From: a virus
Taxonomy: Duplodnaviria; Caudoviricetes
Length of the DNA stretch: 64,000 nucleotides
IMG/VR virus record: IMGVR_UViG_3300020037_002148
Span: 1 to 64,000 of that record
Strand: one strand, 5' to 3'
Below, piece after piece: positions 21,123 through 64,000 of this stretch. Each line of letters opens with the position of its first letter. Position 1 is the first letter of the stretch. A program made the translations under genes and the position numbers. The notes below the pieces were generated by a model, which was not told the origin of the DNA, did not search any database, and was given only the letters and a program-made list of their open reading frames with translations.

Positions 21123-22009
21123 CAGGAGCAGGTCAAAAGACGAGTAAATTTAAAACACCAATTACAGGATTAGCTGTAGTAAAACCATTATTTGTAAATC
21201 CTACAAATGATGATTATAAAAGAATAACAGGTAAAGATTTACCATACACATTAGAATATACTATTAGAGAGAACTCTAATATAAATAATAGAGAGGAGTT
21301 TCCAATTAGAATATTAGTACATCAAGTTGAAAAAGATGTTTATGAATTTGTAAATTTCAATGTATCAAATATTGATGATGTAGCACAAACAGGTTCTGTA
21401 AGATGGTTAGATTCTAAAGGTAACATGACTTGGTCTAAATCTTTAGAGACAATTCAAGAGAATCCTAATATGGCTTGGTTTGATAGTTCAAATGCAAGAT
21501 CAATGAAAGTTGGTGAATATGAATTATATTCTTGGATTCAAAAATTAGTATCTTATGACACAAGAGCAGATGGAGCTAATTTTAAAGATGAAATGATTAA
21601 AAATGGAGTTACATCAGCTAATTTATTTAATGGAACTACAAATGGTTTACAAGGGTTAATTGACTGGTCTAATAAACAAGGATATGCTGTAGGTATGTTA
21701 TTCTATGTAGTTGAAACTACAAAAGATGGAAACACTAATTATAATCAAAAATTAGCTTCTTATCCAGTAGAGATGTTCTTTTATACAGATGAAAAAGATG
21801 GTGTTAGAACTATTAGTAACTATGCTTACAAAACTATGGAGAAATTGATTAAAGGTGATGAATCTAAAAATCAAAAACCAGTAAATATTAAAGGTTTATA
21901 CACCTATAAATTACAGGATTTCGATAAAGAAACATCACTTGGTGGTGAACCAAATGTTGCTATAAGTGGTGTTTCAACAGGTGTTGTAGCAAGTTCTAAA
22001 TGGGTTTAA
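21116..22009 (+). CDS. Hypothetical replication/recombination protein (possible SSB)
   Basis: Located between the Sak4-like ATPase and the primase; function is inference. Confidence 0.5.
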   Translation: MLTGAGQKTSKFKTPITGLAVVKPLFVNPTNDDYKRITGKDLPYTLEYTIRENSNINNREEFPIRILVHQVEKDVYEFVNFNVSNIDDVAQTGSVRWLDSKGNMTWSKSLETIQENPNMAWFDSSNARSMKVGEYELYSWIQKLVSYDTRADGANFKDEMIKNGVTSANLFNGTTNGLQGLIDWSNKQGYAVGMLFYVVETTKDGNTNYNQKLASYPVEMFFYTDEKDGVRTISNYAYKTMEKLIKGDESKNQKPVNIKGLYTYKLQDFDKETSLGGEPNVAISGVSTGVVASSKWV

Positions 22010-40451: not shown

Positions 40452-43400
40452 TTATTTATTCTGTTGCATTTGAAGAGATTTAATACTTTCTCCTAAATCC
40501 ATTTTAGAAGGTGAAGCACCAAATAACTTTAAGAATTTAGCCATTATTTTACTATCACCTTTTTCATAGTAACCTGTAGCTTTCTCATATCTTTCTACAT
40601 CTCCAGTAAGTGCTAAATTGAAAAAATCTTGTGGAACTTGTTCAAGAAAAGATACAGTTTTAGTTACATAACCATACATTACTGAAGGAGTTGATAAATT
40701 TCTTTTAATATCTCCTATATCCGGTAATCCTTTTCTATTAATATCTCCTAATTGACCAAAAGCAGATAACTCTGCATTTAATCTCATCATAGGTGCTAAT
40801 AACATAGCTATTCTAGCTTTTTCATCATCATCTCCAGCAGCTTTCATCATACCTGTTAATCCTGCAATTAAAATACTTGTCATTAATATAAAAGCCATAT
40901 CCATAGCATTTCTTCTAAGATTTGCTAATTCTTTAGGTGTAAGAGTAGAAGTATCTGTTTTTAAAACACTATTTAATATCCCGTCTTTTGAAGTATGGAA
41001 GCCAAATCCTACTTTAACCATCTCTTTAAATTCTTCTCTCATTAATCTGTAGAAAGTTCTATTATAACCTTCAGTAATATCCATTACTCTGAAATTCTTT
41101 CTTTCTCCTCTCCATCTTTTAGCAATTGAATTAGCCATAAAATTTCTCATAAATTTAATTACTCTGCTATACCAAAATTTATTAGCCATTGGTGCAGTCA
41201 TTTTAGAATAGTTACCGTGAGTACTTTGCAGTACATAATTTAATTTATTTTTAAATGTATTTGAAAGTAACCCATTTGAAGTTGTAGAACCTAATTGAGA
41301 TAAAATATTATTTTTAATTTCTATTTTTTTAGTTTCAGGATTCCAAGCATTTTTATATACTTCATATAAATTAGTATCACTACCATGCTCATCTTTTAAT
41401 TTAGTTGTCTTCATTAATGCTAACATCATAGTTAATTGTACATTATGTTCTCCTAAACTTTGTAAAAACATTAAAGGTGAAGAATTCATTAAAATTCTAG
41501 CTTTAGATTTAGAAATCTTTCTACCAAATTTATCTTTAAATTCACCCATAAAAGGATCTACAATTTCTATTAATTGACCTATAAAAGTTTCAGGTATAGG
41601 ATCTACAACATCTTTAATAAAATCATTAGAGAAAGAAGCATATTCTTTATTAGCCCATGCAAGTGTAGCTTTATCAACAAATTGTTGAGCATGAGATTCA
41701 ATCATATTTTGAGCACCTCCTTGTAAATAATTGGCTACATTTGAAAATAATCCAAAAGGTAATCCCATACTTGTATTTGCAATTACTCCTGAAAGAGTAT
41801 CTACAAGAGAATGTAAATCAGTTTCTCCTAAAACAGGTATGTTAACCATTGATTTTTCTCTACTAATTCCATAAATAGCATGATCTATATAATATTTAAA
41901 AAATGCTTCAACATTACTTTCAGATGAATCTACATAAGCATCTAATCCTGGAAGATTTAATTCTTCTGCAAATTTCTTTAATACTAATTTACCTTTAGAA
42001 TCTGTTTTCTTAGGTTTGTTTGTAGCAATAGCAATTTGAAGAGCTGACATTAAAGGTTCTAATTTAACTCTTGATTCATATTGTAGAGCTTCTTTAGCAA
42101 ATAATAATGTAGATTGAGCTAAATCTAAAGAAACATCTTCCAATGCTATTTTAGATGTGTACATAGTAGGTATAACTTTTAAACCACTTTCAGTAGTTTC
42201 ACCATACTGCATTTTTGTATCACTTCCTACTTCATTAAATGCTCTATCCCATTTATCTTTAACAAATTTACCAATTCCATCCTGTGATTTTTCTAATCCT
42301 ACTTTATTATTATAAGGTAAAATATACTTTTCTTCTTGAGATAATTGTTGAGGAAGCAATTGTCTGGATTTATGTGCTTGAGATATAAGCATATTATAGA
42401 AATTTAATTTTGGTATATCACCTCCATTTTGAATAGCAGTCCATTTATCATTAATGAATTTATCATTAGGTTCTCTTAATTCTTTACCTTCTTTAGTATC
42501 ATTTCTAACTTCAATTATATTACCATATTTATCCATTTTAAAAGAAGCAATTTTCCAATCATTAAATTGTTTTTCAGAAATCAATTTATTTTCAACATCT
42601 TTCATTTTATCTTTTATAACAGATAAATAACCTTGTTTGATTACAACACCATTAATTACTTCATCTTTAGCTGCAATAGGTTTTGTATTTTGAGAATACC
42701 AATCATTTAATTTCTTCCAATATTCATTTCTATCTTCAATGTTTTTAATTGATTCTTGAAATTCTTTTTTCTCTTTATTGAATTTAGTAATATCTGTTTT
42801 TTGAACATAAGCTACTTCTTGTCTTTCAATAAATTCTTTTGAAACTGGATCAAAATAACCAAGTGTAATAATTTCAAATAATCCATCATTAAATTCTTTA
42901 GGATTATTTCTAATACCTTCTCTTGTTCTTGCATATTCTTTATATACAGGTAAAAATTCTTCCTGCAACTCCATTAAATGCTGACGTAACTCATTGTCAT
43001 TATTATCAATAATTTGACTTGCTCCTGCTACAAATACATTAGGAGCATCTTGAGGAGCCATTAACCACATTTGAGCAAAAGAAATATCTTCATCCATACC
43101 ATCTTTTAATTGACGAGTAATATCTTCTTCAGTAGTAGTTAATGTTCTTGTTTTAATCTTGATTTTATCTTTTAGATTTCCAATTTTCTTTTCTAGTTTT
43201 TTACTCTTATTATTACCAACCCCACCTGTCTTTTTATTTATCTCCAATAACTCTATTTGAGCTTCATTTATTTCATTCTGAATTTTATCTATTTTCTTTT
43301 GGAAGTCTTTAGTAAATTCTTCATTATCTGTAAATTGTTTAAAATTCTCAACCATAAAAGGAGTAATAGTTCTTTTATATTGATTATCAATATGATCTAA

Positions 43401-45395
43401 CACTTTCTTTATATCACCTAATTTAGAAACTAAACTTTCAGGATCATTATTATCTTTACCTACTTCATCATAAAATTCTATTAACTCGTTCATTAAAGGT
43501 CTAAAGTGATTTACTTTCTTCTTATAACTCAATAAATTCTGAATAATTTCTCTATTATCAGTTATTTTTTTATTTTTAATTTCATTTACTAAACCATTAA
43601 TTTTAGATTGTAAATTAAAATCTCCAGTAATAAATGTTTTATGTAATTCAGTTACATATAAAGCTAATCTACTTGCAGCTACAAAATCTTTATTTTCAAT
43701 AACTCTTAACATTCTCTTTAAATCCTTAATACTATAAGTAGTATTTTCAGTTGAAATATGTTCTAATAAAGCAATTTCATTTTTAATTGCTAATACAACA
43801 TTACTTACATTTTGTTCAAATTGAGTTTCATAAGTGTTAGCAATTCTAAAATTATGTTTTGAATCTATATTAGTTTTATTTAAATAAGTAGTATTTAATT
43901 GTAGAGGAAAATGTTTTTCAACATTAATTTTACTAACTTCATTTCCAGTGGTTTCTACAATATGAATAGGTAATATTTGTATAGGTTTAGAATCTTTAAG
44001 TGGAATACCTCTGGATTCTAATATACCTGCATACATAGATAATTGAGCTTCATGTTTTTCTTTTTTAGAACCTCTATCATTTTGAAATGCTTTATCATAT
44101 CTATTAGTATATTCTTCTCCACTTTCACCTACTTTAGTATAATCTTCAAAATATCTACCATTAAATTTAGTTGGATTAACACTTGATTTTAAATCTATAA
44201 TTTCACTATTACCAAATTCATCTACTAATATTAAATCAGCAGTACCTCCAATTTTCTCTCCTTCATTATAAAGAAATACTTGTGGAATTGCTACTTTAGT
44301 AGGATTTTGTTTTAAAAAGTTATTAAATTCATAAATAAGTTTATTAGTGATTTCTTCATTTATCTGACTTTCTTCACCTCTTTTATTTCTAAGTTTTTCT
44401 ATAGTGGATAAAACATTTTCTAATTGATTTTCATCAAATCTAAATTGAATTACACTTCTAAGAATGTCATCAATTTGATTCCCCCAAATTCTATTATTTT
44501 CATATTTAGATTCATCAAATTTATCATCAAATTTAAATCTTTCATCTTTACCTATAATAGTAGAAGCTCTATCTAATACAGTATTATTTTTAAGTATATA
44601 ATTCTTTTCTGTAGTACCACTTAAATCACTTGACATAGACATTAACTTCTCTGCATTTCTCTTTTGTTCAAATGTAGTATTAATATGTTCAAATTGTTGA
44701 GTGACAAGTGTATTTACTTCTTCACTCCAATCATTTTCTTTAAAAGTATCATCTTTAATTCCATTTTGTTTTCCAAGATTATTGAAGAAATTAAGACTAT
44801 CTGTAATATCATTTGATTGAATTTTTTGAAAAAGTAAATCATCTGGAAATAAATCTTGATCTTGTACATATCCCCCAAATGAATTAGTTTGTCTTTTAAC
44901 CTCACTTCTAATTAAACTTCTTGGATATTTTTTAGCTACTTCTTTTAAAGCTGCTATTTTAGTGTTAATTAAAGCTTGTTCTGTGTATTCTTTTTGAGGA
45001 GTGTTAGGAGTTAAACTTGGGTAAGTTCCATTTTTAATATTTAATTCTGCTTGAATATTCTTAATACTTTCTTTTAAATTATCTTTAGTTTGAGTTGGTT
45101 GAATACCATTAGTTTCTATTTTAAATAAATTGATAGCTTCTTCTAAAGTAATTTCTTTTATTTTATCAGTTAAATTCTTTAAATAAAACTTACCGTTTTC
45201 TTTAAAAACTTCTCCTTGTACAAATCTTTTTTCTCTACCAGAATACGCTGTAAATTTATCAGGTAAATTTTTATTTAAATTAATTTCAGGTTTAACTAAC
45301 TTACCATATTTATCTATTCCCTTTTCTTTGTATAGAATAGACTGTAACTCTTCTTTAGAGTACCAATTATTATTATATTTATATTTACAAGCCAT
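40452..45395 (-). CDS. Large virion ejection/cargo protein with a PD-(D/E)xK nuclease-like domain and a C-terminal TM region
   Basis: GTADLILVD...IIDLKS...QLSMY motif near 44040-44250; hydrophobic helix near the C-terminus. Confidence 0.75.
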   Translation of the reverse strand: MACKYKYNNNWYSKEELQSILYKEKGIDKYGKLVKPEINLNKNLPDKFTAYSGREKRFVQGEVFKENGKFYLKNLTDKIKEITLEEAINLFKIETNGIQPTQTKDNLKESIKNIQAELNIKNGTYPSLTPNTPQKEYTEQALINTKIAALKEVAKKYPRSLIRSEVKRQTNSFGGYVQDQDLFPDDLLFQKIQSNDITDSLNFFNNLGKQNGIKDDTFKENDWSEEVNTLVTQQFEHINTTFEQKRNAEKLMSMSSDLSGTTEKNYILKNNTVLDRASTIIGKDERFKFDDKFDESKYENNRIWGNQIDDILRSVIQFRFDENQLENVLSTIEKLRNKRGEESQINEEITNKLIYEFNNFLKQNPTKVAIPQVFLYNEGEKIGGTADLILVDEFGNSEIIDLKSSVNPTKFNGRYFEDYTKVGESGEEYTNRYDKAFQNDRGSKKEKHEAQLSMYAGILESRGIPLKDSKPIQILPIHIVETTGNEVSKINVEKHFPLQLNTTYLNKTNIDSKHNFRIANTYETQFEQNVSNVVLAIKNEIALLEHISTENTTYSIKDLKRMLRVIENKDFVAASRLALYVTELHKTFITGDFNLQSKINGLVNEIKNKKITDNREIIQNLLSYKKKVNHFRPLMNELIEFYDEVGKDNNDPESLVSKLGDIKKVLDHIDNQYKRTITPFMVENFKQFTDNEEFTKDFQKKIDKIQNEINEAQIELLEINKKTGGVGNNKSKKLEKKIGNLKDKIKIKTRTLTTTEEDITRQLKDGMDEDISFAQMWLMAPQDAPNVFVAGASQIIDNNDNELRQHLMELQEEFLPVYKEYARTREGIRNNPKEFNDGLFEIITLGYFDPVSKEFIERQEVAYVQKTDITKFNKEKKEFQESIKNIEDRNEYWKKLNDWYSQNTKPIAAKDEVINGVVIKQGYLSVIKDKMKDVENKLISEKQFNDWKIASFKMDKYGNIIEVRNDTKEGKELREPNDKFINDKWTAIQNGGDIPKLNFYNMLISQAHKSRQLLPQQLSQEEKYILPYNNKVGLEKSQDGIGKFVKDKWDRAFNEVGSDTKMQYGETTESGLKVIPTMYTSKIALEDVSLDLAQSTLLFAKEALQYESRVKLEPLMSALQIAIATNKPKKTDSKGKLVLKKFAEELNLPGLDAYVDSSESNVEAFFKYYIDHAIYGISREKSMVNIPVLGETDLHSLVDTLSGVIANTSMGLPFGLFSNVANYLQGGAQNMIESHAQQFVDKATLAWANKEYASFSNDFIKDVVDPIPETFIGQLIEIVDPFMGEFKDKFGRKISKSKARILMNSSPLMFLQSLGEHNVQLTMMLALMKTTKLKDEHGSDTNLYEVYKNAWNPETKKIEIKNNILSQLGSTTSNGLLSNTFKNKLNYVLQSTHGNYSKMTAPMANKFWYSRVIKFMRNFMANSIAKRWRGERKNFRVMDITEGYNRTFYRLMREEFKEMVKVGFGFHTSKDGILNSVLKTDTSTLTPKELANLRRNAMDMAFILMTSILIAGLTGMMKAAGDDDEKARIAMLLAPMMRLNAELSAFGQLGDINRKGLPDIGDIKRNLSTPSVMYGYVTKTVSFLEQVPQDFFNLALTGDVERYEKATGYYEKGDSKIMAKFLKLFGASPSKMDLGESIKSLQMQQNK

Positions 45396-45396
45396 A

Positions 45397-46137
45397 TTAA
45401 TTATTATTTATTTTGTCCCAAAGATAAACTCTTGATTTTTTATACAATATATTTTCTATTTGCTTACCTAACTTATATTTTTCTCTTATCTCTTTAACAG
45501 ATAAACCATTAATTCTATCTTTTATAGCTTCTATTAATAATTCATCAGAATATTTAGTTAAATGTCTTGACTGTATTTTTGTATTATTAATTAAATGCTT
45601 CTCTTCATCAGGAATAATATAATCAGAAACATCCACCCAAGTTCTATGAGATTTTATACTTTGTATTGTGTTTTGCGCTACATTAAACATTTTAGATATT
45701 TCTAAAGCAGTTTTATTGTAAGCAATTAATTTTTTAATTTCAGTTACCTGGTCTTTATTTAGTATATATCTTCCATTTTCAACTCTATTTTCCTTATCTT
45801 CTTTATGTTTTTTAGAAATAGATTTACTTAAATTTTCAAATCCTTTTGTTTTTATATATTTACCTGCTTTTTTACATATATTAAAAGGAGGGTTTAAATT
45901 GTCTAAAAACCATTGTTCTAATTTTACTAAATATATATCTGGGCAAATTGCTATTATTTCAAATTTAAAATTATTAATTCCATGCTTATTATAACTATTT
46001 TGTAATTTAATTGAAGAATGTTTGTTTCTTTTTAATTGATTAAAATGTTGCCATTCTCTGTTTTTTAAATTACAAGAACTACCAATATAAAATTTATTAT
46101 TTACAAGATTAGTTATTTTATATATACCGCTTAACAT
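45397..46137 (-). CDS. Free-standing GIY-YIG homing endonuclease
   Basis: SGIYKITNLVNNKFYIGSS; C-terminal HTH-like repeats. Confidence 0.9.
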   Translation of the reverse strand: MLSGIYKITNLVNNKFYIGSSCNLKNREWQHFNQLKRNKHSSIKLQNSYNKHGINNFKFEIIAICPDIYLVKLEQWFLDNLNPPFNICKKAGKYIKTKGFENLSKSISKKHKEDKENRVENGRYILNKDQVTEIKKLIAYNKTALEISKMFNVAQNTIQSIKSHRTWVDVSDYIIPDEEKHLINNTKIQSRHLTKYSDELLIEAIKDRINGLSVKEIREKYKLGKQIENILYKKSRVYLWDKINNN

Positions 46138-48164
46138 TCTTTTTCTAATTTATTTATAAAATTGTTAACTTCTTCTAATCTTTTTTGTTGTAAAATTTTA
46201 TTTACATTTTCAATAATTTTCTTAGTTTGGTATGGAACATCATCATCTGCTTCAAGTTCAAAGTTACTAAAATTTAATGATATAGCTAACTCGTTGTGGT
46301 GGTGTGATAAATCATCTACAATAGAAGCAAGATTTGGTTGAACAGTAGTTACATTACTTAAAGAAGGATATTTAGTATAACTAACTCCAAGTAATTCAGA
46401 CTTTTTATCCTTATTTACTTTTTCGGAAGCATCCCAAACACTGCCACTATATACATCTGTGTTAGCAGCCCATAATATATCATTAGATTGTGGATATAGT
46501 TTAAACTTAATCTTACCACCACCACCTTCTAAATGTCCTATTTGTTTATCAATAGGTTTAGTATATGCAGATATTGCAAATTTACCACCAGCTTTTTCAT
46601 TATCTTCTATATGAGATAATAAATTTTGCATCATAAGATTTACATCAAAATTAGAATAAGCTCCTACAACAGAACTAAACTCTTGACCTCTTGAATATAT
46701 TTCTTCAGGATTATATTGAATGTTATTTACTCTTTTCCATTCTTCTATAATTTCTTTAGATTGTTCATATTCTTTGTTTTTTTCTATGAAGCCTTCTACA
46801 CCTGCTTTATTTATATAATTATCAGATAAATTAGAATTCCATAAAGTAAGAATATCATCATCCAACATTATTCTATTAGTATCTTCAATATACCATTTTC
46901 CAGCTTTTTTATTATAAGTAGTATTGTCAAACTCATCAACAAATTTATTTACAGGTATTTCACTTGCTTTTTCTACTTTTTTTCTTATATTTAAACTAAC
47001 ATTATCTAAATCAACATCTTCAACACTTTTAGTTAATTGACCAATGTGTTTACTTGCTTCTTGATAAGTTTTAAATGTTTGATTATCAGGAGTGGTATAT
47101 TCTACTTCATATCCAGGTAATATAAGTTTACTATTAGAATAGGCTAATAAATCAGCTAAATCATTAATAGTCATATTATCAGGTAATTTATCTATTTCTA
47201 CTTCTTTTTGAAATAAAATATCTTTCATAAAAGATTTTATTTCTTTTAATAATCTTTTAAGTAAAGATATTAGTTTACCATCTTTAACAGCATCAAGTTT
47301 TTCAGCAGTCATCATTCCTAGGAGTTCTACAATGGCTTCTTCTTGTTGTTCTTCTAAAGTATATTCTGTTTTATTAGGATTTTCTTTTTGATATTTTTTA
47401 GCCTTTTGTTCATCATTAAATGTTTTACCATCTATTTTATACACATATTCTTGTACCCCAAAAACATCATCTTCTAAAGTAATTTCTTTTAGATTTTCTT
47501 TATATTGATAATCCCTCTTAACCCTATCTAATACTTCTTTACCTTTACCATATTCAAGTTCTTTGAGTAGGTTTTGGTATAATTCAGCTTTAGGGTTAGT
47601 TTGAATAGTTTTATCATATCTGTATATAATAGTTCCATCAGGAGCATCATAAGCTGCTAAATATCTTATTCCATTTTTTTCTATAACTTGATTTTTCTCA
47701 ATAATTTTATCAGCATCTTTTTCAGTAAGATTTTCTTCTATTTGAAACTTACTACCATTTTTAATAGCTCTAATAATAGGATGTCCTAATATTTCATGTA
47801 TTGGAGTGTCTAATGTTGCATAAGCTAAATTAATATAAGCTACATTATTTTCAATTTTACCTTTATAATCTTTACTTCTATCAGATTCTATTTTATAAGG
47901 AATACCTATTCTATCAGACATTCTAGCTGCTAAATCTCTAATAGTTTTTTCTGAAGCTATTTGTCCTTCATTGGATTGAGTTTGTTTTTGAAAAGAAGTA
48001 TTTCTACCTATTTGATTTTCCATCCATAATTTAGAAGGAAATTCATCCAATCTATTATTACTTTCTTGCCATAGAGATACTATACCACCTATATATTCAG
48101 GTGTTTTACTAAACTCTTTAGCCCAATCTTGTATTTGTTGATTACTTATATTTGTACAATGCAT
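46131..48164 (-). CDS. Virion/cargo protein with a zincin-like metallopeptidase motif
   Basis: HEILGH (47781-47798) and downstream EEAIVE. Confidence 0.7.
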   Translation of the reverse strand: MHCTNISNQQIQDWAKEFSKTPEYIGGIVSLWQESNNRLDEFPSKLWMENQIGRNTSFQKQTQSNEGQIASEKTIRDLAARMSDRIGIPYKIESDRSKDYKGKIENNVAYINLAYATLDTPIHEILGHPIIRAIKNGSKFQIEENLTEKDADKIIEKNQVIEKNGIRYLAAYDAPDGTIIYRYDKTIQTNPKAELYQNLLKELEYGKGKEVLDRVKRDYQYKENLKEITLEDDVFGVQEYVYKIDGKTFNDEQKAKKYQKENPNKTEYTLEEQQEEAIVELLGMMTAEKLDAVKDGKLISLLKRLLKEIKSFMKDILFQKEVEIDKLPDNMTINDLADLLAYSNSKLILPGYEVEYTTPDNQTFKTYQEASKHIGQLTKSVEDVDLDNVSLNIRKKVEKASEIPVNKFVDEFDNTTYNKKAGKWYIEDTNRIMLDDDILTLWNSNLSDNYINKAGVEGFIEKNKEYEQSKEIIEEWKRVNNIQYNPEEIYSRGQEFSSVVGAYSNFDVNLMMQNLLSHIEDNEKAGGKFAISAYTKPIDKQIGHLEGGGGKIKFKLYPQSNDILWAANTDVYSGSVWDASEKVNKDKKSELLGVSYTKYPSLSNVTTVQPNLASIVDDLSHHHNELAISLNFSNFELEADDDVPYQTKKIIENVNKILQQKRLEEVNNFINKLEKEC

Positions 48165-48165
48165 A

Positions 48166-51100
48166 TTATGATTTTAATGAATAACATTTTTTGGTTTTAT
48201 CTTCTATTTCTTGTTTACTTTTCCCTGCTTTAACCATAAAGTTATTAGCAACTCTTTCTAATTCCTCAATAGTTCTATTTTTAGTGCCTTCTAAAGTTAC
48301 TTTAGTTATTGCTGAATATTGATTAATTAAATTAATAAAATTTAATCTTACTTCAGTTTCATCTTTAGCTTTTTCCTTAGTTTTATTAAACATATTCATT
48401 TTCACTTTCTCTGTTTGTTCAGGTGAAAGTACCATGTCTAATTGATCTTTAATACTATTAGTTAAAGAAGATATTTCACCACTACCTAATATAATATGTT
48501 GATTATATAATGCTTTAGTTCCTTCAATATAACCATTTTCAAATTGATTAGCAATAGCTTTAGCTATATTTACTAATCTTTCTCTACCATTTTTATATGT
48601 TTTTAATTTAGCATCATTATTAATAATCTCATAAATAGTATTATTAAATAAATCACCATAATAAATATCACCTTTTAAAGATTCTTTACTTGAGTTACTA
48701 AGTTCTAGCACTTTACCTTCAGGTGATATTTGAAAATTAATCCAACTACCATCAACTTGAATACTATCTTGTACAGCAGTTAATTTTAAAGGTATTCTAG
48801 CACTATTTTTACCAGATAAATAAGTTATTATAGGAAATCCTATTTTACTATAAGGAATAATTTTATCACCTGATTTATATGTTTTAGCTATTTTTTTAAA
48901 TATAACTATTTCATCTCTTAAAATAAATTTTTTATTTTCTTTTTTAATTTGAGATTTTTGTTCAGGTTTCATTCCTTTAGTAATTCTTGCAAATTGATTT
49001 ACTACTAAAGTGTTATTTTTACTATCAAAGAATATAGGGTAATTATCTTCCAATACTAACTCCTCTTTTTCATTAGTATCACTTTCATTATCATTTACAA
49101 AATCCTCACTTTCAATTTTATTATCTTTAATCCATTTTTCATCAATTACTTTTCTTAGAACATCAATCTTTTGAGATTTTAAATCAAAGTAATTATTTTG
49201 ATTTAATCCAAATTTAATTATAAAGTCTAAATTCAATTCTTCTTTAGACATTCCAAAAGTTTCTATATATTCTTTACTGGAACTCATTTTACTGAATAAT
49301 TCTTGAACTTTATCTAAAGCATTTGAAGTTTCAGTAAATAATATAGGATCAATAGCTTTTATAAAAGATTGATTTTGAAACATTAAACCATCTTTAACTA
49401 CAAGATATTTAAACATATCCTTAGCAAATTTAGTTTTAAGAGTATTAATTCTTCTAATTTCAGGATCTCTTTCTAAGATATTATTATTTTCTGCAAAATA
49501 TAAATCATTAAAACTCGAAATTATACTTGAAATAATATCTGGATTTTTTAAAGCTCTTGAATTAGCTCCAAAACCATGAAATCTATAACCAAATAAAGTA
49601 TTTTTATTTGCTTGTTTTTTAAGATAATCAATATTTTTTATTTCAAGAAATTCTAAGAAATCATTTTTAATTCCATTTTTATAATTATATTCAATTATTT
49701 GTAAGAAATTAGTTTGTAATTCATTATTCTCTTTAGTGTTATCTTTAGCAATTTCTTCTAAAGGAGTTAATAAAAATTCTTCAATTTTAGGAAGTTTATC
49801 ATCAGTATTTTTAACACTTTCAGCATAAGCCATCACTGTTAAATATGATAAATAATGTTTTCTTAAATTACTTTGAAAATCAACATTACCTGCTTTATAA
49901 TCTTTAAATAAAGTAAGTATATCTTCTCTTGTTTTTTTAGCTGTTGGAGTTTGAGATATAAAATACTTTTCACTTAACTTAGTTAAAGCTAAAGCTGTTT
50001 TAATAGATTGTTTTAAGAATTTATCTTTTTCAAAAATATCACCAACACCATTTCCAATTATCTTAGTAGTATCTTTATAATTTTTATAAAATTTATCAGT
50101 AGGTTTATCATTTTTTACAATATCTAAACCATTTTCACTAACACTCCATCCTAAATTATTTAAAGCTGTAATAAACTTTTCAGATTCTGCAAATGTGCTT
50201 TTAAAACCTTTAATTAATTGTAATAAATTTTGCAGATTACTAAATACAGTAGATGCTTTTTTATAATGGAAATATTCATTAGAGATTCTTTTTAAAATAG
50301 CTTTTTGATTACTTACAGGTTTTTCTTCTTGAGAAAATAAATCTTTTTGTTCTTGATAGTCACCAAATCTTTCTTTAAATTGTTGTTCATTAGAAATATC
50401 TTGACCACTTTCATTTCTAAAAGTCCATCCTTTAGGAGCTAATATTAGTGTAGGTAAATTTAATTTAAATCCTGCTTTAGCTCCTGCTTCATCTAAACCT
50501 GTTTGTCCTCCAGTTCTAATTCTTTCTATTGGATTTTCTAAATCAGGTGAACTTAAAACAGCTTGTAATAATTCATATACATAATCATCTAATTGCTCTT
50601 GAGTATATTTACCTTTCATAGTATATATACCATTACCAGCAATGTTTAAAGTCTTAGCTTTAGTTTCATTTAATTGTTCTACAATATTATCAACTATTTC
50701 TGGAGTTACTTCTAAAGAGTCTTTAATATCAATAGGAATATATTTTTTACTTTGTCCTTCAACAGAAGATTTAGTTAATCTTTCACCAGCACTTGTAAAA
50801 TCTACTGCAATAGCTATTGTAGCATCAGCAGAAGCGTTTTTAATAGTTCTTTGTTTATAACCTGTAGATTGTTCTTCTAAAAAAGTAATTCCTTTAGAAA
50901 ATTCTTCTTTAATTACTTCTTTATTTTTCAAAGAATCCAATAAAGTTTGATAATTTAAATCTCCTTCAAATTCAGATTCACCTTCTAATTGAAATATACT
51001 TTCTACTTTCTTCTGTAATTCTCTATTTCCTTTACTATCATCATAATCTTGTTTAGATTGAATAGTTTTATTATATGATTGAGATAATTCAGAAATCTTT

Positions 51101-54100
51101 TTAACAATTGGAGATTTCATTAATAACATTACATTATTAAAATTATGACCTACACCAATCATAGCTAAAGCTACAGGAAGTGTTTCAGTAGTTAAATTAA
51201 ACAGATTAGCCATTTGCTCTTTAGCATTATCAGTCATTGCTGCTAATAATGTAGCTATACTATCTTGAACTCTTTGAGCATCTTTTTCATCTACTAATTT
51301 ATTATTTTCATCTCTTGAATAATTAACAAAAGGTTCTAAATTAATCTTTTCACCTACTTTTCTTTCAATAGTTACTTTATTTTTAAATAATATTCCAAAG
51401 AGATTATTAAACAAAGCTACTGGTCCAATATTAGCAGCTCCTGTTGAAATAGATATGTCAGCAAGAGTTTTAGAAAGCATATCATGTACTCCATATCCTA
51501 AATCTTTATTAATTAATCCTTCTCCTTCAAGAGTTTCAATTAAATCTTTAAATAATTTAAGACTTGTAGGTGTATTAGTTATTTTATTATTACCATCATT
51601 ATTAATTAGCTTTCTTTCTAATTCTAATAACATATTATTAGTTTCTCCTTTTGTTAAAGGTTCTATACTATCTATATTACCAGATTGATAAGCAATATAA
51701 TTACTTTCAATTACATCTTTATTTTTATAAGTCCATTCTCCTTTATTGAATATAATTTTATTAATAATGAAAGATTGTTCTAATAAAGTTAATTCTAAAG
51801 ATTTAATTTCATCAATGATACCTAATAATTCAGAAGTAGCTGGTTTTACTAATTGTTCTCTAGTAAATACATTTGGTATTTCTTTAACTTTTCTTAAACT
51901 ATTTTCAGCAATAGTTTTTTCTCTGGTTAATTCAATTAATTCTTTACTATTAGTTTTTAAATCATTAAATGTAGAAGATATTTTTTTATTATCATAAGCA
52001 TCAGATAAATATTCATTATATGCTTGTTCTTTAGCTTCTTCCAAAGTTGATTGAAATAAATAACTACCATATATTCCTGTTTTTTTATTTAAAACATTTG
52101 TATAAGTTTGATTTACTCTTACATATAAAGCATCAATATCAAAGTCAGCTCCAGATAATTCAACAATTTCATTTGGTAACATAATTGCATTACCATAACT
52201 ATCAGGTAGTATATCTACTATTTTACAATTAATCATAGAGTGTTTATCTTCTGTTGGAATTCTGACTCCAGATATATATAAAAATTCTTGAGGTATTTCA
52301 CCTTTGTGAAATTGATCTGCTGTAAATCCAAATTTCTTTAAGAATCTTTCACTTACTACAATTTCAGAATAATATTCATGTTTTTCTTTATCATAAACAT
52401 CATGTCTTAATCTTTGAGAAACAATATTAGCTCCTCTTGGTCTATTATCTCCTTTAGATTGTCTAGTAGTGAATGTTTTAATTACATTACCTTCATTATC
52501 AATTTCTCTCTCTAATTCACTACCAACACTTGACATTAAAGATAATTTAGAACCAGCAACTTTTTGTTTAAGTGTACCACCACTAACAAAAGAAAGGAAC
52601 ATTGATTGAAATTTAGTTTCAATTGCAGGATTATTTAAATTGTATTTAGGTTTGCTACTATTTCCTTGTTGAAATAATTCTAGTTGTTGAGGATCAGCAG
52701 ATGATTTTTCAATTGAATCTATAAAACTTTTTAAAAGTAAATCCCATTCAGCATCTCCATTTTCATCTAACATCTCTTTTTTAAGAGCTTTAAATCCTTT
52801 ATCAGTTCTTTCAGCTAATTGTTTTTCATAAACATTTAATGCAGTACCAATATTTATTTCTTTATTTTTAAAATAAATTAAAGTTTCATTTATTTGTTCA
52901 GTAGAAATTAATCTTAAAAATTGAGTAGGATGTGTTATTTGTTTTTTAACTCCATCAGTTTTTTGTTGATCAATTAAACTTGCATTTGGTACAGAAATTG
53001 ATGAAATAACTTTTTTACCATTTTCATTTTTATATAAAAAAGGTTGCCCATTACTAATTTCATGTATATTGTATTTACTTCTTTTCCAAGCACTATCATA
53101 TACTGCAATAGCATTATTTAATTCCAGTTCATTTAATAAATTATGTTTATATTCTTTACCAGGGATAGCTTCAAATAAATTCTGATATTTTTTAGTTAAA
53201 TAAGTAATATAAGCATTATCAGAAGGTGATGCTTGTAATTTCAAATCAAATAGTTCTTTATGTATTAGAAGAGCTTCTTTAAGATTTTCTTTTGAATAAT
53301 TTTTTAATCTTGAAGTTGTTTCTCTTAAAATTGGAGAAATTGAAGTTTTTAAATACCAATCTAAACCAAAACCTTGTGTTTTATTAGGTTGGTGTTGTGC
53401 ATTATTATCATAGAGGTAATCATAATCTTCTTTAGTTATTTTTTGTAATTCACCTTCACTATTTATATAATAATTTAAGCCACTATCAATTCCTTGATAT
53501 ATTTCTTTAATTCTATTATCAATTGATTTAGAATTTAGAATAACTGATAAATGATGAAAAGGAGTATTGAATGTTTGAGCATCTGTAGTATCAATTTTAT
53601 TTACTACTTCAGATCTAATAGGGATTATATTTGTAACTCCACTACCATAATTAGAACCACTACCAATCATACCTTTAGCTCTTTTTACAAAGTCATTAGC
53701 GTTTTTACTAGATGTAGCATTGTCTCCATACATTAAAGAATTAATACCATAAGACATTAAATAGTCATTTAAAAAAGCATTTTTTAAAGCATTTTTATCT
53801 AATTGATTTCCAGAAATAAAAGATTTTGGTAATAAGTTAACTTCACCCTCTTTAAGAAGACCTTTATCTTCTAATAATTTAATATATTCGTCAACTTGAA
53901 AATCAATAAAATTAGATAATCTTTGTTTAATTTCTTCTTCAGAAAGATCTTTTTCATTTAATTTAGTATTTTTATTAGCAAAGTTAAATAACTTTAATCC
54001 TTTTGGTATTAAACTATTTAAATTAATTTCTTTTTTTATTGTAGAACCATCCTCTTGTTTTTCATTATAATATAATTCTTCTTTAGATAGGTTTACAACA

Positions 54101-57100
54101 TTATTATTATTATCAATGTCTAAATAGAAATAAGTTCCATCACTATGTGTAAATATTTTAACTGATTTATTACCATTAGTGCCTTCTACACCAATATTTT
54201 GTAACATATAATGAAATCCTTCATTATATCCATCTTTCTTAAAACCTAAATAATATTCATCTATTTCACTTTGAACAATTTTAATTCTCTCTACTTCTTG
54301 ATTATATATAGAATATAAGGAATTCAATCCTTTTTCATTAATTTTACCTTTTTCAATAAAATTATTAAAAGGTAATAATACCATTGGTATAGTAGATGCA
54401 CTTTCATATTGAGAAGCTATATAATAAGCATATTTTTGTTTACCTACAACTTTTAAATTATATTTATTATAAGCACTATCAGCTAAAAGACTTAATCTAT
54501 ATAATATTTTAGCAGTAGTATCAGCATTATTATAACTTTTACCATCACTATCAGAAAATAATCCATAATTTTTAGAAGATACATCTACATCTTCACTATC
54601 TTCATACTCAGTTACATTAGTTTCTTCTTGTCTAATACCTCCAGCATAAGCCATAGTTAAAGTGGTAAATAAAGTATCAATATCTACATTATTAAATAGA
54701 GGATTATGATCTAACACTTGTAAAAAATTATCTACTTGATATTCTTCTGTAAAGAAACTATATAAATAATATGTACCATTTTCTTCATTATTTAATACTT
54801 TATCTTTAAATGTTTTAACATCTTTTGTTTCAAGATATTCTTTAATTAATTGAACATTATCTTTATCTTTTAATATATTTAATCTTCTTGAAATATCAGA
54901 AGGTGGTGTAATATCAAATATTCTTTTACCTTCTTGATTATTAAATGAAGATGGAATTATACTTGTATCAAATAAAGCTGTACTTTCAGCTACATCCATT
55001 AATTTACCAACAGCTCCTAATAAAGGTTCTGCTTTTTGAGTGGCAGGGTCTATATCATTATATATAGTGTTAGTTCCAAAACTAATACCTGTAGTTAATG
55101 TTTTTTCAATACCATCTAAAAATTCTAAATTAATAGGTTTTATATCACTTGCTGAAAAATTATTATACCAATTTATTTCTTCATTTGTAAGTAAATTAGT
55201 ATTTCCTGTTTCAAATACAAAGTTTATTAGATTGTATTTAATAAATTGTTCAGGTAATTCAATACCTAAATCAGAAAATGAACTTTTGAAAGTATTCACT
55301 AAAGCAATTACAGCTTCACTTTTTTCTTGTGATTTAAGTGATTTTGTATTTTCTAATAAATCTACATATTTTTGTAAAATATTATCTATATTACTTTTAT
55401 ATAAATTTGCTTTAAAATCAATTTTAGCTTGTTCTAAATTGTCAATTCTTTTAGAATTCCAATTTCTTTCCCATCTACTAAATACTTGTTTACCAACATT
55501 TCTATTATTAGCATTTAACATTCTGGTTACACCTTCTTTAGAAAATAATACATCTTGTAAATAAGTTCTATTTTTTTCAAAATCAGAAGATATAAAACTA
55601 AATGTAGGTGATTTAGTTAATATTTTATAATATAAAGGACTTAATATTTCATATAATTTAGCAAAATCTTCAACATTAATTTCAGGTAATTCAAAACTAT
55701 TATTTTTCTTTAATTCACTATAAATATCTTTATACCATTGATGTGTAAATGCTTTAATTTCAGGAGAAGTATTAGAAACAGAATATAATAATCCTAAATG
55801 TTTATAAGCTGGAGCACCAACTAACATTTTTGTTAAATTAGAATATAAATGATTTCCGTTAATAGCAAAACTATAATTTTTACTTTTATCATTAACTATA
55901 TAATCATCAAATGGTTTTCCAATGCCAAATAAATCAATATTTGTACTCACTGAGGAAATATATTGCTTTACTTTTTTAGATGCTTTATCCCAAGCATGAT
56001 TAATTTCATTTTTACTTTTTTGAACAATTCCTGTATCATTTAATTCATCATCTTCTAAATCATCACTATCATCTAATTGTTCTTGTAAAATAGAAGATTC
56101 ATTTACAAGATTATATAAAGGAAGTCTTTCAAAAACTTCTTGAACTACTATTTCTTGATTTTTTAAATTTCCTAAACTTTTATATACATTTAAATATTTT
56201 GAAGCTGTCTTATTTGCTAAATCATCATCTTTAATAGAATCAATTAAATCAGCAATAACTTCATTATTAGGGTTAAATCTCTCTCTAAATAAATCATAAA
56301 TATCACTAATTTCATCATCAGTAATAATTTTTGATCCTTTATTTTTTAATATTTTAGCAGCTTCATTTGTAATTGTGTTAATGATAGCTTCAGATATTGA
56401 ATAACTTAAATATCCTTTTTTATCTATATATTTACCATTAGTTAATTTAAGTTTATATTCTTGTACTAAAAGTTTATTTACATCAATAGAATTATTGACA
56501 TTTCTAATTACAGGAAATTTCTCTTTAGCATTTTTAAATTTACCTTGATAAATATCTGAGAATAATTGTGTTACAGCTCTTTCATTAGATGTATTATTTT
56601 TATCAAATATCCCTTTTAATAAATTCTTTATTCTTTCAAAGATTCTTCTTAACCATGATTGTGTTACAGATTTTTCAGCTTTCATATACTCCATAAAAGC
56701 ATCTGCCATTTTTTCTTCTAGCCAAAGATTTTTTAATTCTTGTTGAGATAAATTAATTAAATCAGAAGATGATTCTTTTAAGGTTTGTAATTGTTCTTTA
56801 GTTGGTGTGCCATATAAAGATTCAGCACCATTAAGAGTTTTAATAATTCTACCTCTATCAAGCATTAATCTAAATACAGCATGAAAAGCTTCATGATATT
56901 CAAAACCTTTTACAGATTTACCATTTTTAGTAGCAAGATATATAGTTTTTAATTTACCTATAAATCTACCACCTACTTCACCTTTAGTTTTAAGGTTTCC
57001 GAGTATATCAATTAAATCAGTAACTTCAATAGTTCCATTAGGATTATCTTGAGTTTTAATAGGGAGTATTTGAGATAGATTTTTGATTGCAGTATTATAC

Positions 57101-60100
57101 TCAATTAAATCTTGGGTAGATAATTCTAATAATTTATTAGCACCTTCTGTTTCAGCTTCATTTTGAGCATTTGTAACAATTTGTACAAATTCTTCTAAAC
57201 TCAATCCTTTTTCACTAATTTTAGATCTACGATAAACTCTTGAAAGTAAATCTTCTTCTTTTGGTAATTGTTCAAAATTAACACCTAATTCTTCTAATTT
57301 ATCTATATTTGGAGTTTGTTTAACTTCTATTTTAGGTTCTAAAGCAGCTAATTCTGCATCATATTTAGCGTTGATTTTATCTATTTCAGGTTTTAAAAGT
57401 TTTGATAACTCTTCTTTAGAATAACCACCTCTTTCTATAATCCTATTAAGTGTTTGACCTCCTCCCCCAATTTCAGGATTGTTTCCACTGTCATTAGAGT
57501 AAGCTAATTCCATTAACTCTCTTGAAACATATTCATCTACCCCTAAAACTTTTACACTATTTTTAGATGTCTGTTTTTCACTTGTTCCAAACTTTTTTAA
57601 AGCTTCTTGTCTTCTTCTTTTTATATCAGCTTCAATAAGTTGCTTATGAGTTTTGTTTTCAGGATTATCTAATTTTTTACCTTCAAAATAAACATTATCA
57701 CCCTTAACTTCATAATTTGTATTACCTACTTTTCCTTGTGGTAAATCTGCATTTAAGTTTAATTCTATTTCAGATTGAGTAGTAGATGTAGGTTGTTCTT
57801 CTAATGCTTTTAGTTCTGCAGAAGGAGTAGGAGAACTTTCAACTACTTGTATTATTGTTTTAGCTTCTTCTTGAGCTTCTAATTTAACAGTATTTTCATT
57901 AAATAAATCTTCCTGTTCTTTATTTTGTATTTGTTCTTTAGCTTTTTGCTGTTGATTTATTTCTTCTTGTTGTTTTTCATTTCTAAGTCTTATATTTTCT
58001 CTAGTAGAAGTAATTTCTTTTACTTGTGTTCTATCAGGTCTTAAATATAAATTATATCCTAACTTCTTTTTAGTTACAAGATTTTCTAAAGATTGTTGAT
58101 TATTTTTATTTAATAATACATTAGTATAGAATCCGTTTATTGTAGCATTTACGTTAGTTGCTTTTCTAAGTTTACCTAATACTGAATATTGGCTATCTTT
58201 TAAAATTAAAGAAGCAATTTCTTCATTTAATTTATTTTCATTTAAGACTTCATGTCTAAATTTTTTAATTTCTTCAATTTTTTGACCTAAAGTAATTTCT
58301 CCTTTTTCAAATCTTTTATTAATTGGGTCTAATTCTTCTTTACCTTTAGCAAAAGATTTAAAGAAGTTTTGACCATCAAAATAAATTGAAGAAGCTATAG
58401 TAGTTTTCTTCCCATTAATCTCTAATTCAAATGATAATTGCCCTATTTTATCAGAATAAGTAGATATGAAAGGAGTTACTTTAACTTTTTCTGTTTTATT
58501 TAATCCTGTTACAGATAAGAATAAATCAAAATTTTTAATATCTTCTTTAGGGTCTAATTCTTTTTTAGTTTTATCTTTATATTCTTCATAATAAGAACTC
58601 AAACCTTCACTCATAATTTGAAGTGCTGGTAATAATGCTTTTTCATTATTTAAAAAGTTAACTATAAATTCTTCATTATTATCTAATCCTTTTAATTTAG
58701 AAATAGTTTCATTTGAAGTGAAAATAGGTTGAATATATCCATTAGAATTAAATACTAATAAAGAAAATAAACTCCCTTTAGTGCTTATAGCGTTTTCTTT
58801 TTTATATGATACTAAATTTTGGATAGCTTTTCTTTCTTCACTATTTTCTTTATCATCTCTATCTCTCCATAATACAGTACCATCTTCATTTCTTTCTAAT
58901 TTACCATTAATAATATTTACAAAATATAATTTTGAAAATCCCTGACCATCTCCAGTAGATTTACCAAAAATAACTATATTTTTATCTTCACCATTTACTT
59001 TAATAGTTTTAGTAGCAGCTTTAGTTAATACATTATCTGGATCATCAAGAGTGTCTTCTATTCTAGTTTCTATTATATTTCCATCTTTATCTTTATTATC
59101 AGTAAAATTCATCTCTATTTGAGATGAAAAAGAATTAAGATTAATCTGACCATTTGTTAAATTATTAAAATCTTCAAATGATATATCACCTCTTTGAGTG
59201 ATAGTATTCAATTTATTAGAAAAACTATTTAATTCTGTTAAATATTGACCTAACACTTTTCTATCTTCAATAGTAGAAATTAAATCTGAAGGAAATAACA
59301 TTCCTAATACAATCTCTAAATAACCATCTTCTTTTAATTTACTAAAATCAATTGGACTCCATTTATCATTTATTTTAAGATAAATTTGATTTGGCATTTG
59401 GAATCCACCAATAAGTTCTCCATCTACTTTCATTTGAAAGTTAAATGGTTTATTATTACCTCTTACACCACTTAATGAAATTACATTTTGATTATCTTTT
59501 TCTTTTAAATCTGCTACAGCTTGTTCAATAGATTTAGGATTTTCTAAATCTGTTAAAGTAAAAGTAATTCTTTTTCTAAGATCTTTTTCATTTGGATTAT
59601 TAGCAATTGAAGCTAGTTTATTTTCTTGTTGTTCATTATTAAATAAACTAAATAATTCATTTATATTAGAGAAATATGGTTTTTTACCATCTTCTTTCTT
59701 TTGTTTTTCAGCTTCTTTTTTAGTTTGTTGTAATTCTATAATTCTTTCTTTTGCTTTAGCAATTAAAGTATTCACATTAACTTTCAATGTATCATTAACA
59801 GTTTCTTTATATTGTTTTAAATGAGCTACTAAAGCATCAAGTGTATCTAAATCATCTTCTTGATTGATTATTGTACTTACTTTTGAAATATATTCTTTCT
59901 GAGCTTTTACTTGCTCACTATCATCTTCTTTAACTTGTAAATCAACATTATTTTCAATTTCTTTTTCTGTATCTTTATCTATTTCAAGTCCTTGATTATG
60001 TAAAAATGTTTTAGCTTTTTCTTTTAAAAATTTTATTGTAGCAGCTCTTTCATTTCTTTTAACTTCTTTATCGAATTTCTCTCTACCATTTTTAGTATTG

Positions 60101-62645: not shown

Positions 62646-63137
62646 TTATTTAATATAATATTCTACAGTTGCATTTTTATTTGAAGGGTATTTTAAATCT
62701 AATTGTTGTTGAGCATAAGAAGCATTCCCATTACTTTCTTTTAATTTTTGTAAATAAAATTCTGTTTGAGGACCTCCTCTAAAATGTACAAGTTTTTCAA
62801 TCATTGATTTTTGTGAAGGATCTACTTTATATTTAGTTATAATATTTTTAGCTTCACTTTCTAATACATTTGGAGCATACCATTCATTATAAAAACTATC
62901 TTGTAAAACATGATTTTTTAAAAATTGTTGAGGTGTTAAATTGGGATTTCCTGAAAAACTTTTTATTTTATTCCCCCATTCACTCCAGATAAATTGATAT
63001 TTTCCATAAGCATTACCATTCACAGCACCATAACCATTATCAGGTTGCCCTTTACTTTCTAAATTAACAATGTCTTTATCTCTTTGTTTACCCTCAGAAG
63101 TTATTGAAATCTGATTATTGACTGCTGAGGGTTGGTA
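62646..63137 (-). CDS. Lysozyme-like (muramidase) domain, probably expressed as a -1 frameshift extension of the upstream gene
   Basis: Open frame carries IVNLESKG...YGAVN...AYGKYQF; the putative catalytic Glu (63057-59) lies upstream of the track GTG start. Confidence 0.7.
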   Translation of the reverse strand, partial: YQPSAVNNQISITSEGKQRDKDIVNLESKGQPDNGYGAVNGNAYGKYQFIWSEWGNKIKSFSGNPNLTPQQFLKNHVLQDSFYNEWYAPNVLESEAKNIITKYKVDPSQKSMIEKLVHFRGGPQTEFYLQKLKESNGNASYAQQQLDLKYPSNKNATVEYYIK

Positions 63138-63143
63138 AAATTT
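63090..63143 (-). promoter_or_regulatory. Candidate programmed -1 frameshift signal
   Basis: In-frame A_AAT_TTT (63143-63137) followed 4 nt later by the stem ACCCTCAG/CTGAGGGT. Confidence 0.65.
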
Positions 63144-64000
63144 CCAGTAGAAGGTATTATAGGTCTAGTTTCTTTAACTACTCTGTCAAGATACTTATCA
63201 TATATTTGACTTGATACAACTTCACCAAGACTTTGAGACATATTCATAATTTGACTAATTAAAAACTCTTTAGTTCCTTGCTCACCTTTTTGTGCTTTTA
63301 AACTTGCAATAATTTGAGTATCTTTCATTAATCTCTCCATATTTAAAGTAATATTAGTTACTAAACCAATATTATTAGTATGGAAATTAATTCTATTATC
63401 TTTAGTTGATATTCCATTTATATCTGCACTATCATATAACTCTATTAAATAGTCTCCTTTAGAGATACCGTCTACACCTCTATTACCAAAATCTCTTTTA
63501 ATAACAATATCTCCTTGTTCTTTTAATCCTGGATAAGTGTATCTCATATATCCAGCATTATTAGAAAGACCATCATGTATTTTCTTATTCTCCTGAATCA
63601 TAGTTCTACTTTCAACACCTAATACATCATCTGCAATTCTTTCTAAAGAATTATCTCCTGCTATTTTTATACCTACAGTGGTTAACTCATCATTACTAAG
63701 ATCAATATTTTTAGATTTATTTTTTCTACCTAAATCTAAACCACTTACAGTAAGACACGCATAAAGCTCTCCATCAATATTTTGAAAAGTAACTGTTTCT
63801 ACAGATTCTACATTATCTTCTCCAAGTTTCTTTTGTTTTTTTAATCTTTGAGCTTTAAAGTTATCTAATTGTTCTGCTGTTAATTGTTCTCCTGTTCTTA
63901 CATAAAATATATTACCACTACTCCCTTGCTGACTTATTCTTTCATCTAAAGAAGATTTTAATTGAGCTTTATATTTAGCTGCGTCATCAGCAGATTTACC
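63101..64000 (-). CDS. C-terminal part of a large virion/ejection protein (5' end outside the window)
   Basis: Manually checked to stay open upstream of the track ATG 63601 to at least about 63720; continuation to the window edge is assumed. Confidence 0.75.
   Translation of the reverse strand, partial: GKSADDAAKYKAQLKSSLDERISQQGSSGNIFYVRTGEQLTAEQLDNFKAQRLKKQKKLGEDNVESVETVTFQNIDGELYACLTVSGLDLGRKNKSKNIDLSNDELTTVGIKIAGDNSLERIADDVLGVESRTMIQENKKIHDGLSNNAGYMRYTYPGLKEQGDIVIKRDFGNRGVDGISKGDYLIELYDSADINGISTKDNRINFHTNNIGLVTNITLNMERLMKDTQIIASLKAQKGEQGTKEFLISQIMNMSQSLGEVVSSQIYDKYLDRVVKETRPIIPSTGNFTNPQQSIIRFQ

Follow-up and report, generated by a model that had tools for sequence, protein, structure and literature searches.

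Among the phages of the human gut, crassviruses are the most abundant. We analyzed a stretch of 64,000 nucleotides (nt) from a tailed phage (positions 1 to 64,000 of the 78,987-bp IMG/VR record IMGVR_UViG_3300020037_002148; referred to here as the window), the minus strand of which encodes three giant proteins that are probably the packed and injected cargo of the phage, an RNA polymerase (RNAP) among them. We report that four of the five cysteine (Cys) residues of these proteins lie at chain ends that face each other across gene junctions, that this pattern is conserved among relatives, and that it follows the splitting and fusion of the cargo genes; consecutive cargo proteins may thus be tethered end to end. 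The delivery of a giant virion RNAP and its partners by crassviruses was explicitly called open in a 2026 paper on phage N4 (PMC13434306).

Related cargo and split-gene systems

In the phi14:2 preprint, gp67, gp66, and gp65 form an RNAP cargo block, a structure is given for gp66 (PDB 6VR4), and fused polyproteins are proposed to be cleaved into parts (Drobysheva et al., bioRxiv 10.1101/2020.03.07.982082). For crAss001, gp47, gp49, and gp50 are described as capsid cargo that has to be at least partly unfolded for passage through the tail, and structural disulfides are reported in the virion, in its tail (Bayfield et al. 2023, PMC10172136). Mass spectrometry has placed the cargo in the virion in crAss001 and in phi14:2 only. 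Ejection proteins free of Cys have been described for N4-like phages, namely N4 gp50 and DEV gp71/72/73 (PMC11445570 and PMC13434306); the accepted rationale given there for Cys suppression in ejected proteins is periplasmic thiol oxidation (PMC11445570), and the N4 polymerase is described as being ejected as a single beads-on-a-string chain (PMC13434306). In Aeromonas phage Aeh1, insertion of the homing endonuclease gene mobE has split NrdA, which is reassembled via tails acquired in the same event (Crona et al. 2011, PMC3045599).

The cargo of the window resembles the Crassvirales RNAP block in that its proteins are homologous, giant, and Cys-poor and comprise a DFDxD polymerase with a zincin partner; the published phi14:2 and crAss001 proteins carry the same terminal Cys. 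It differs from both in that the counterparts of gp47 and gp50 are fused, whereas the counterpart of gp49 is split by an endonuclease cassette. Judged by this homology, the three proteins belong to the Crassvirales block already described. With N4 the locus shares a strong suppression of Cys and a giant RNAP, which here would likewise be packed in the virion and delivered through a narrow tail. However, the N4 polymerase is one chain that is essentially free of Cys, whereas crAss-like cargo often consists of several chains and tolerates Cys only at facing chain ends.

Cysteine content of the three cargo proteins

The RNAP polyprotein and the proteins of 677 and 1647 amino acids (aa) together contain 5 Cys in 7115 aa (0.07%), against a background of 1.50% in the 62 other open reading frames (ORFs) of the record, and 4 of the 5 are found at the four facing termini, no more than 6 residues from the end. 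The polyprotein ends KTKKCYSLKS (Cys codon 48184-48186); the 677-aa protein begins MHC (48156-48158) and ends LEKEC (46134-46136); and the 1647-aa protein begins MAC (45387-45389). The outer ends, that is, the N terminus of the polyprotein and the C terminus of the 1647-aa protein, have no Cys. An earlier note on this DNA had given the count of 5 Cys, the terminal residues, and the codon coordinates, and all were exact on recount. If Cys residues are placed at random over the 7115 residues, the probability that 4 of 5 fall in the 38 facing-end residues is ~4e-9. Read in frame, the three genes contain 5 TGY codons, whereas the alternative frames contain 54 and 322, and in the rest of the window's genome Cys was present in the first 8 residues of 5 of the 62 ORFs and in the last 11 residues of 6.

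BLAST comparison with crAss001 gp47 and gp50 and with phi14:2 gp66 indicated that residues ~1-2100 of the 4791-aa polyprotein are gp47-like and are fused to a gp50-like virion RNAP; the fused boundary between the two has no Cys. The polyprotein contains the DFDxD motif of two-barrel RNAPs within GADFDIDA (residues 3464-3471), in a region matched by phi14:2 gp66 and crAss001 gp50. The fifth Cys, Cys3439 (52225-52227), lies 27 residues upstream of DFDID and is the only internal Cys of the polymerase module. It seems to be an ordinary internal Cys and is retained in an 83%-identical relative (L035), the one relative found for this region.

The 677-aa protein is the N-terminal zincin half of a gp49/gp65-like protein, with HEILGH at 47781-47798 aligning to HExxH, and the 1647-aa protein is the C-terminal half. 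In tblastn searches the latter matched phi14:2 g065 (9e-17) and the crAss001 gp49 gene, annotated as a putative RNA-polymerase subunit (4e-13). An exhaustive search yielded 361 homologues of the 677-aa protein, which had no tblastn match in the phage collection and no Pfam or PHROG family; in the Pfam and PHROG searches the 1647-aa protein gave only a weak match to a PHROG exonuclease.

Junction cysteines among relatives

In order to follow the terminal Cys beyond the window, we compared 26 IMG/VR loci carrying relatives of the 677-aa protein and the annotated genomes of phi14:2, crAss001, cr111_1, cr126_1, cr55_1, cr4_1, p-crAssphage, Rudgehvirus, cr8_1, cr110_1, and Lbo-JY46. A junction was scored for Cys in the last 11 residues of the upstream protein and in the first 8 of the downstream protein. 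The 41 junctions scored span the window, 20 IMG/VR loci, and the named genomes, and represent three Crassvirales families, environmental contigs, and one cyanophage. None of the 41 lacked either of the facing Cys. In phi14:2, gp67 ends ..NTIC, gp66 begins MAC and ends ..QECK, and gp65 begins MSC; in crAss001, gp47 ends ..RCNS, gp50 begins MSKRC and ends ..ICGANTLYEL, and gp49 begins MAKKC. In the unclassified Leptolyngbya phage Lbo-JY46, the single Cys of a 1552-aa protein is its last residue and that of the 2748-aa protein following it is residue 4. The expectation of the earlier note that a C-terminal Cys should co-occur with an N-terminal MxC in the partner was thus borne out at every junction, in the broader form M-x(0-5)-C, and the terminal Cys proved to be conserved in orthologs across Crassvirales and beyond. 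One gene call in the set, cr110_1 gp40 (L038:10092-10211), probably has its annotated start 14 codons too early; an internal MSC matches p-crAssphage gp44.

The same bias was seen in individual homologues, with 277 of 337 Cys terminal in 221 proteins (405,847 aa; phylogenetically uncorrected). Among 98 homologues of the 1647-aa protein (156,013 residues), the first 8 and last 11 residues hold 125 of the 147 Cys, compared with 1.75 for a uniform spread, and among 123 further representatives found with the 677-aa protein (249,834 residues), 152 of 190 are terminal. In the set of 98, the N-terminal Cys is residue 3 in 52 proteins, residue 4 in 22, and residue 5 in 9, and 14 proteins end with the C-terminal Cys, whereas 12 have it as the next-to-last residue. 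The residues around the Cys vary, the 98 proteins showing 91 different 12-residue heads, and the junction Cys are encoded by both TGT (47) and TGC (6). Since the surrounding residues vary and both codons are used, selection acts on the protein.

Precomputed matches to enzyme families were also noted among homologues of the 1647-aa protein (P0005, P0008, P0012, P0015, P0035, P0053, P0055, and P0077), some to PF18760 (ART-PolyVal) and others to DUF1768/YbiA or to a zeta-toxin/AAA_33 kinase. As these matches differ among homologues, the cargo chain contains variable enzyme modules.

Covariation with splitting, fusion, and gene order

The strongest evidence that the facing ends are paired is that Cys covaries with splitting. 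First pieces have a C-terminal Cys only, middle pieces have exactly two Cys, and last pieces have an N-terminal Cys only. Thus, the first pieces P0149 (5149 aa) and P0170 (3001 aa) contain one Cys each, which is the final residue, and the fully fused proteins P0189 (7385 aa), P0137 (6678 aa), and P0113 (5502 aa) contain none. Fused homologues have no Cys at sites that are split elsewhere, the split site of the window included. One candidate for a fusion of the RNAP with the 677-aa protein, L022, was rejected, as a different region, RNase H-like, makes up its upstream part.

Gene order provides a further comparison. In Intestiviridae, p-crAssphage for example, the zincin protein precedes the RNAP; here the zincin protein has the C-terminal Cys, and the RNAP has an N-terminal Cys and lacks a C-terminal one. 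Because the ends swap when the gene order is permuted, the Cys track the junction and not the protein family. The earlier note had taken the partner of each protein to be the product of the next gene. This does not hold in general, as the genes for the crAss001 partners gp47 and gp50 lie on opposite strands yet their products keep the Cys pair together with matching end sequences, nor does it hold at the second junction of the window, where an endonuclease ORF separates the genes for the 677-aa and 1647-aa proteins.

An endonuclease cassette at the second junction

The separating ORF, a GIY-YIG gene, matches Pfam PF01541 (6e-9) and the PHROG homing endonuclease family (2e-20), and its product is not part of the cargo chain. 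Its ATG overlaps the Cys677 codon (gaATGTTAA). Uninterrupted homologues of the zincin protein include L021, L003, and L005-L007, and the bounds of the inserted cassette were set by nucleotide comparison with the empty site of L021, a close relative whose ORF is continuous and Cys-free. Up to the insertion point the flanks of L021 and the window align and share an AAA; immediately downstream of the cassette, 31 nt (AAATATGGTAAGTTAGTTAAACCTGAAATTA) that may be the endonuclease target are 94% identical. Across the split of the window the fused homologues are continuous, reading ..KKIIDGINKILDQK and then YGKLVKPEI... Since both Cys of the second junction lie inside the 870-bp cassette (Table 1), both were brought by the insertion. 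On this comparison, the second junction is a recent split of a gp49-like gene by a homing endonuclease.

The arrangement is like that of Aeh1 nrdA/mobE in that a free-standing endonuclease gene divides an essential gene without an intron or intein and in that unique C- and N-terminal tails, missing from uninterrupted homologues, are found at the break. In contrast, the Aeh1 tails are noncovalent and have no described pair of terminal Cys, whereas the tail and head in the window are each tipped with one of the protein's very few Cys, and related crAss-like cassettes are found again at several different places in a single gene. By its sequence organization the second junction belongs to the Aeh1-type endonuclease-split genes, with the Cys tips and the recurrence at multiple sites as additions.

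Genes other than GIY-YIG also occur exactly at cargo junctions (L018:2823-3659, L002:1215-3104, L006:3060-3413, L015:1366-1719, and L020:1853-2362). They comprise an Amidase_2 gene, a gene for a YkuD L,D-transpeptidase-like protein, two DUF5856 genes, and a NinG-like nuclease gene; their products have a normal Cys content and no terminal Cys.

Matched classes of tails and heads

The facing ends fall into matched classes. Tail A has the form [WF]N..S..E[KR]....C, in which Cys is the sole invariant column in seven aligned tails (alignment A1). Head A reads M-x(1-4)-C-[IV]-N and continues into a helical domain of ~45 aa, the end of which is WQ..N..FP; C, N, W, Q, N, and P are invariant among the heads of the seven aligned pairs (alignment A2). 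A hidden Markov model of head A matched N termini only, those of the window's 677-aa protein, cr111 gp033, crAss001 gp50, cr4 gp27, and cr55 gp071, and gave no match inside fused proteins. The carrier of head A is the zincin protein in the clade of the window and the polymerase in crAss001 and cr111, and in each case its partner bears tail A.

The second junction carries class B ends, a tail of the form ..LI.KG.I.KEC, related to tails at other split sites and in Lbo-JY46, and a head of the form MAC[KI]Y.Y.N..Y[ST]..E. Head B types occur at at least five split positions of the zincin protein (reference positions 5469, ~4985, ~5100, ~5120, and ~5640), and the motif was N terminal in 22 matches and internal in 5, the latter weak. 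Tail A pairs with head A at 8 to 9 junctions and tail B with head B at 6 of 6, Lbo-JY46 included, at different junction positions. Class B heads are mostly found beside GIY-YIG genes, which are 31 to 62% identical to one another. From their sequences and distribution, the tail-endonuclease-head cassettes look like a mobile family that brings its own end-peptides to new sites. Junctions tipped with Cys also occur where there is no endonuclease gene.

A putative tether between cargo proteins

The interpretation that we favor, with moderate confidence, is that facing Cys tether consecutive cargo proteins end to end, probably by a disulfide. Selection would keep the RNAP cargo of crAss-like phages as a single continuous thread. 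As one giant ORF product the thread would be free of Cys; in the split form each piece would bear a matched end-peptide, or half of a clasp, the upstream piece a Cys-tipped tail and the downstream piece a head with Cys at residue 2 to 7. The tail and head of consecutive pieces would dock and form an interchain Cys bond, most likely a disulfide made after particle assembly or release. In the window, the thread would run from the RNAP polyprotein through the zincin half to the C-terminal half. Links at the extreme termini would keep the polymer nearly linear, so that passage through a narrow tail channel would be possible, and removal of all other Cys would guard against incorrect cross-linking and against trapping by thiol oxidases in the periplasm. 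The tail and head that the endonuclease cassette carries would neutralize the break that it makes in the zincin gene. The pieces would in this way imitate the single-chain ejection of N4, and compared with the cleavage proposed for phi14:2, the pattern in the window suggests that continuity itself is selected. The proposed tether agrees with the published accounts of partly unfolded cargo and of virion disulfides in crAss001 and with the accepted rationale for Cys suppression in ejected proteins.

The earlier note had proposed that each C-terminal Cys pairs with an N-terminal one by a disulfide or metal bridge. That the ends behave as pairs is upheld by the 41 junctions, the Cys-free fusions, and the way in which Cys follow the junction; a bond between them, and its role in packaging or ejection, would be a further step. 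The note also had the chain separating in the cytoplasm upon reduction. Such separation may occur, and it is not obligatory, because there are Cys-free fused versions as long as 7385 aa. A search of the record, which is 77% complete, found no thioredoxin gene.

A number of observations weigh against the tether. The bond between facing Cys is read from a sequence pattern. The reducing cytoplasm and the anoxic gut lumen make the timing of disulfide formation doubtful, and the disulfides of the crAss001 tail could have formed during aerobic purification. The homologue counts include shared ancestry. P0088, P0077, and P0093 are among the few homologues without the expected Cys, most of which are truncated gene calls at contig ends. 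Finally, in P0019, P0037, P0078, P0084, P0090, and L002:2-1210 the C-terminal Cys is followed not by 0 to 10 residues but by a conserved domain of ~65 aa (C-KGKLKAEKGL..GGVD..HGLVIPKN), which had no Pfam match and fits less well with a strictly linear thread.

Alternative explanations

The main alternative is that a metal ion (Zn, Fe, or Cu) bridges the facing Cys, or that some other thiol chemistry joins them, in place of a disulfide. Such a bridge would draw on the same pairing evidence as the tether and would be workable in an anoxic, reducing gut, where many hosts are strict anaerobes, and one head in the window, MHC, has a His beside the Cys. However, Cys alone is invariant in the tails, no invariant His, Asp, or Glu ligand lies near the Cys of the heads, and two thiolates by themselves make a weak metal site; we therefore regard this alternative as unlikely. 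It is also conceivable that the terminal Cys are selected but bond elsewhere, to a portal, capsid, or tail protein or to the identical end of a second molecule, or that they serve packaging only. Lone terminal Cys without an obvious facing partner are found in p-crAssphage gp47 (..KQSCR; L033, 775-3348), in Rudgehvirus gene49 (Cys747 of 757; L034, 1089-3362), and in Lbo-JY46 protein 385, which begins MKKKC (L036, 2686-4710). Bare outer ends, middle pieces with two Cys, and Cys-free fusions are nevertheless expected only from pairing across junctions, the tail and head classes match across them, and the Cys switch ends when the gene order is permuted; given this parity and permutation, outside partners are less likely than a metal bridge, and we consider them improbable.

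Two further explanations are already contradicted by the data. Rejoining of the pieces by intron splicing, by ribosome hopping between TGT codons, or by intein-like protein splicing is suggested by the matched TGT codons that bracket the 25-nt gap at the first junction and by the GIY-YIG gene, of a type often borne by introns, within the second. However, the opposite strands of the crAss001 gp47 and gp50 genes do not provide the transcript in cis that bypassing or splicing requires, each downstream piece has its own ATG 1 to 6 codons ahead of the Cys, and phi14:2 gp66 was expressed and crystallized as a separate 2180-aa protein (6VR4), so that we think rejoining very improbable. Split inteins are like the ends described here in having short complementary end-peptides that would restore covalent continuity, selfish endonucleases, and a junction Cys. 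The tail and head of the window differ from them in totaling ~44 aa, in having no Hint fold or intein blocks, and in the reversed positions of their Cys, which would leave two chains bridged by a disulfide where an intein makes a peptide bond. Pfam detected no intein or Hint domain in either half (a 16-aa tail with Cys last and a 28-aa head with Cys third), and identity with a split intein was rejected on the absence of this domain and the wrong Cys positions. The least probable explanation of all is chance, or a by-product of start/stop overlaps of the ATGTTAA type that force a final Cys codon. ATGTTAA or ATGTTAG does occur at the second junction of the window and in L002, L004, L015, and L023, and an unrelated plus-strand gene pair of the window (20670-21122 and 21116-22009) shares ATGTTAA, its upstream protein ending ..LEIC; the overlap by itself can thus create a C-terminal Cys. 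Against this, most junctions have no such overlap, an N-terminal Cys cannot arise from one, terminal Cys are few in the 62 other ORFs, and the 98 homologues contain 125 end-window Cys where fewer than 2 are expected. Because of gene permutation and opposite-strand genes, ribosome hopping, splicing, and start/stop overlap are excluded as general explanations, and the end-to-end tether remains the reading that we prefer.

Features of the locus and further cargo candidates

The features of the cargo locus are listed in Table 1. A match to PF12694, a circularly permuted YpsA/SLOG domain (2e-9), was found within residues 3889-3970 of the polyprotein, and in tblastn searches this region also matched ICP1 and phiPMW genes. 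Two more Cys-poor proteins are encoded upstream of the chain on the minus strand, at 63101-64000 and continuing to 69189 in the genome. They have 950 aa with 1 Cys and 1078 aa with none, lack terminal Cys, and are probably cargo proteins 1 and 2.

Table 1. Coordinates of the cargo genes, their facing ends, and associated features in the window
Feature	Position	Strand	Description
RNAP polyprotein	48166-62541	minus	4791 aa; Cys3439 and Cys4786; no N-terminal Cys
DFDID catalytic motif	52132-52146	minus	Located by alignment
YpsA/SLOG match	50632-50877	minus	PF12694
Polyprotein C-terminal tail	48169-48243	minus	Ends KQEIEDKTKKCYSLKS; includes Cys4786
677-aa protein (middle link)	46131-48164	minus	Cys3 and Cys677 (final residue) only
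Head A of the window	48015-48164	minus	~50 aa; MHCTNIS...LWQESNNRLDEFPS; Cys3 at 48156-48158
Inserted cassette	45312-46181	minus	870 bp; 16-codon tail with stop, GIY-YIG gene, 28-codon head
Tail B	46134-46181	minus	RLEEVNNFINKLEKEC; contains Cys677; missing from uninterrupted homologues
GIY-YIG homing endonuclease	45397-46137	minus	246 aa; free-standing; 3 internal Cys
Head B	45312-45395	minus	MACKYKYNNNWYSKEELQSILYKEKGID; contains Cys3; missing from uninterrupted homologues
1647-aa protein (last link)	40452-45395	minus	Cys3 only; no Cys at C terminus

Implications for crAss-like phages

Literature and keyword searching found no published description of a terminal-Cys rule, and at keyword level the available text of the crAss001 paper (PMC10172136), the phi14:2 preprint, and the N4 paper (PMC13434306) does not mention the terminal Cys. 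The rule that Cys occurs only at facing ends, and not at all in fused forms, gives a concrete and cheaply testable hypothesis, namely, that the cargo is one end-linked thread. If true, it would account for the Cys-free cargo proteins, for stoichiometric copackaging and ordered ejection, and for the way in which the cargo genes tolerate being split again and again by homing endonucleases. Short end-peptides of this kind, matched and tipped with Cys, might also serve as small, redox-reversible protein ligation tags. A more far-reaching proposal, which we find possible but rather doubtful, is that ~0.8-1 megadalton of protein is injected as one disulfide-stitched thread, the stitches of which are portable clasps carried by homing endonuclease cassettes. 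If that were so, portable clasps would constitute a third route, beside introns and inteins, by which a selfish element can interrupt an essential gene and leave it functional.

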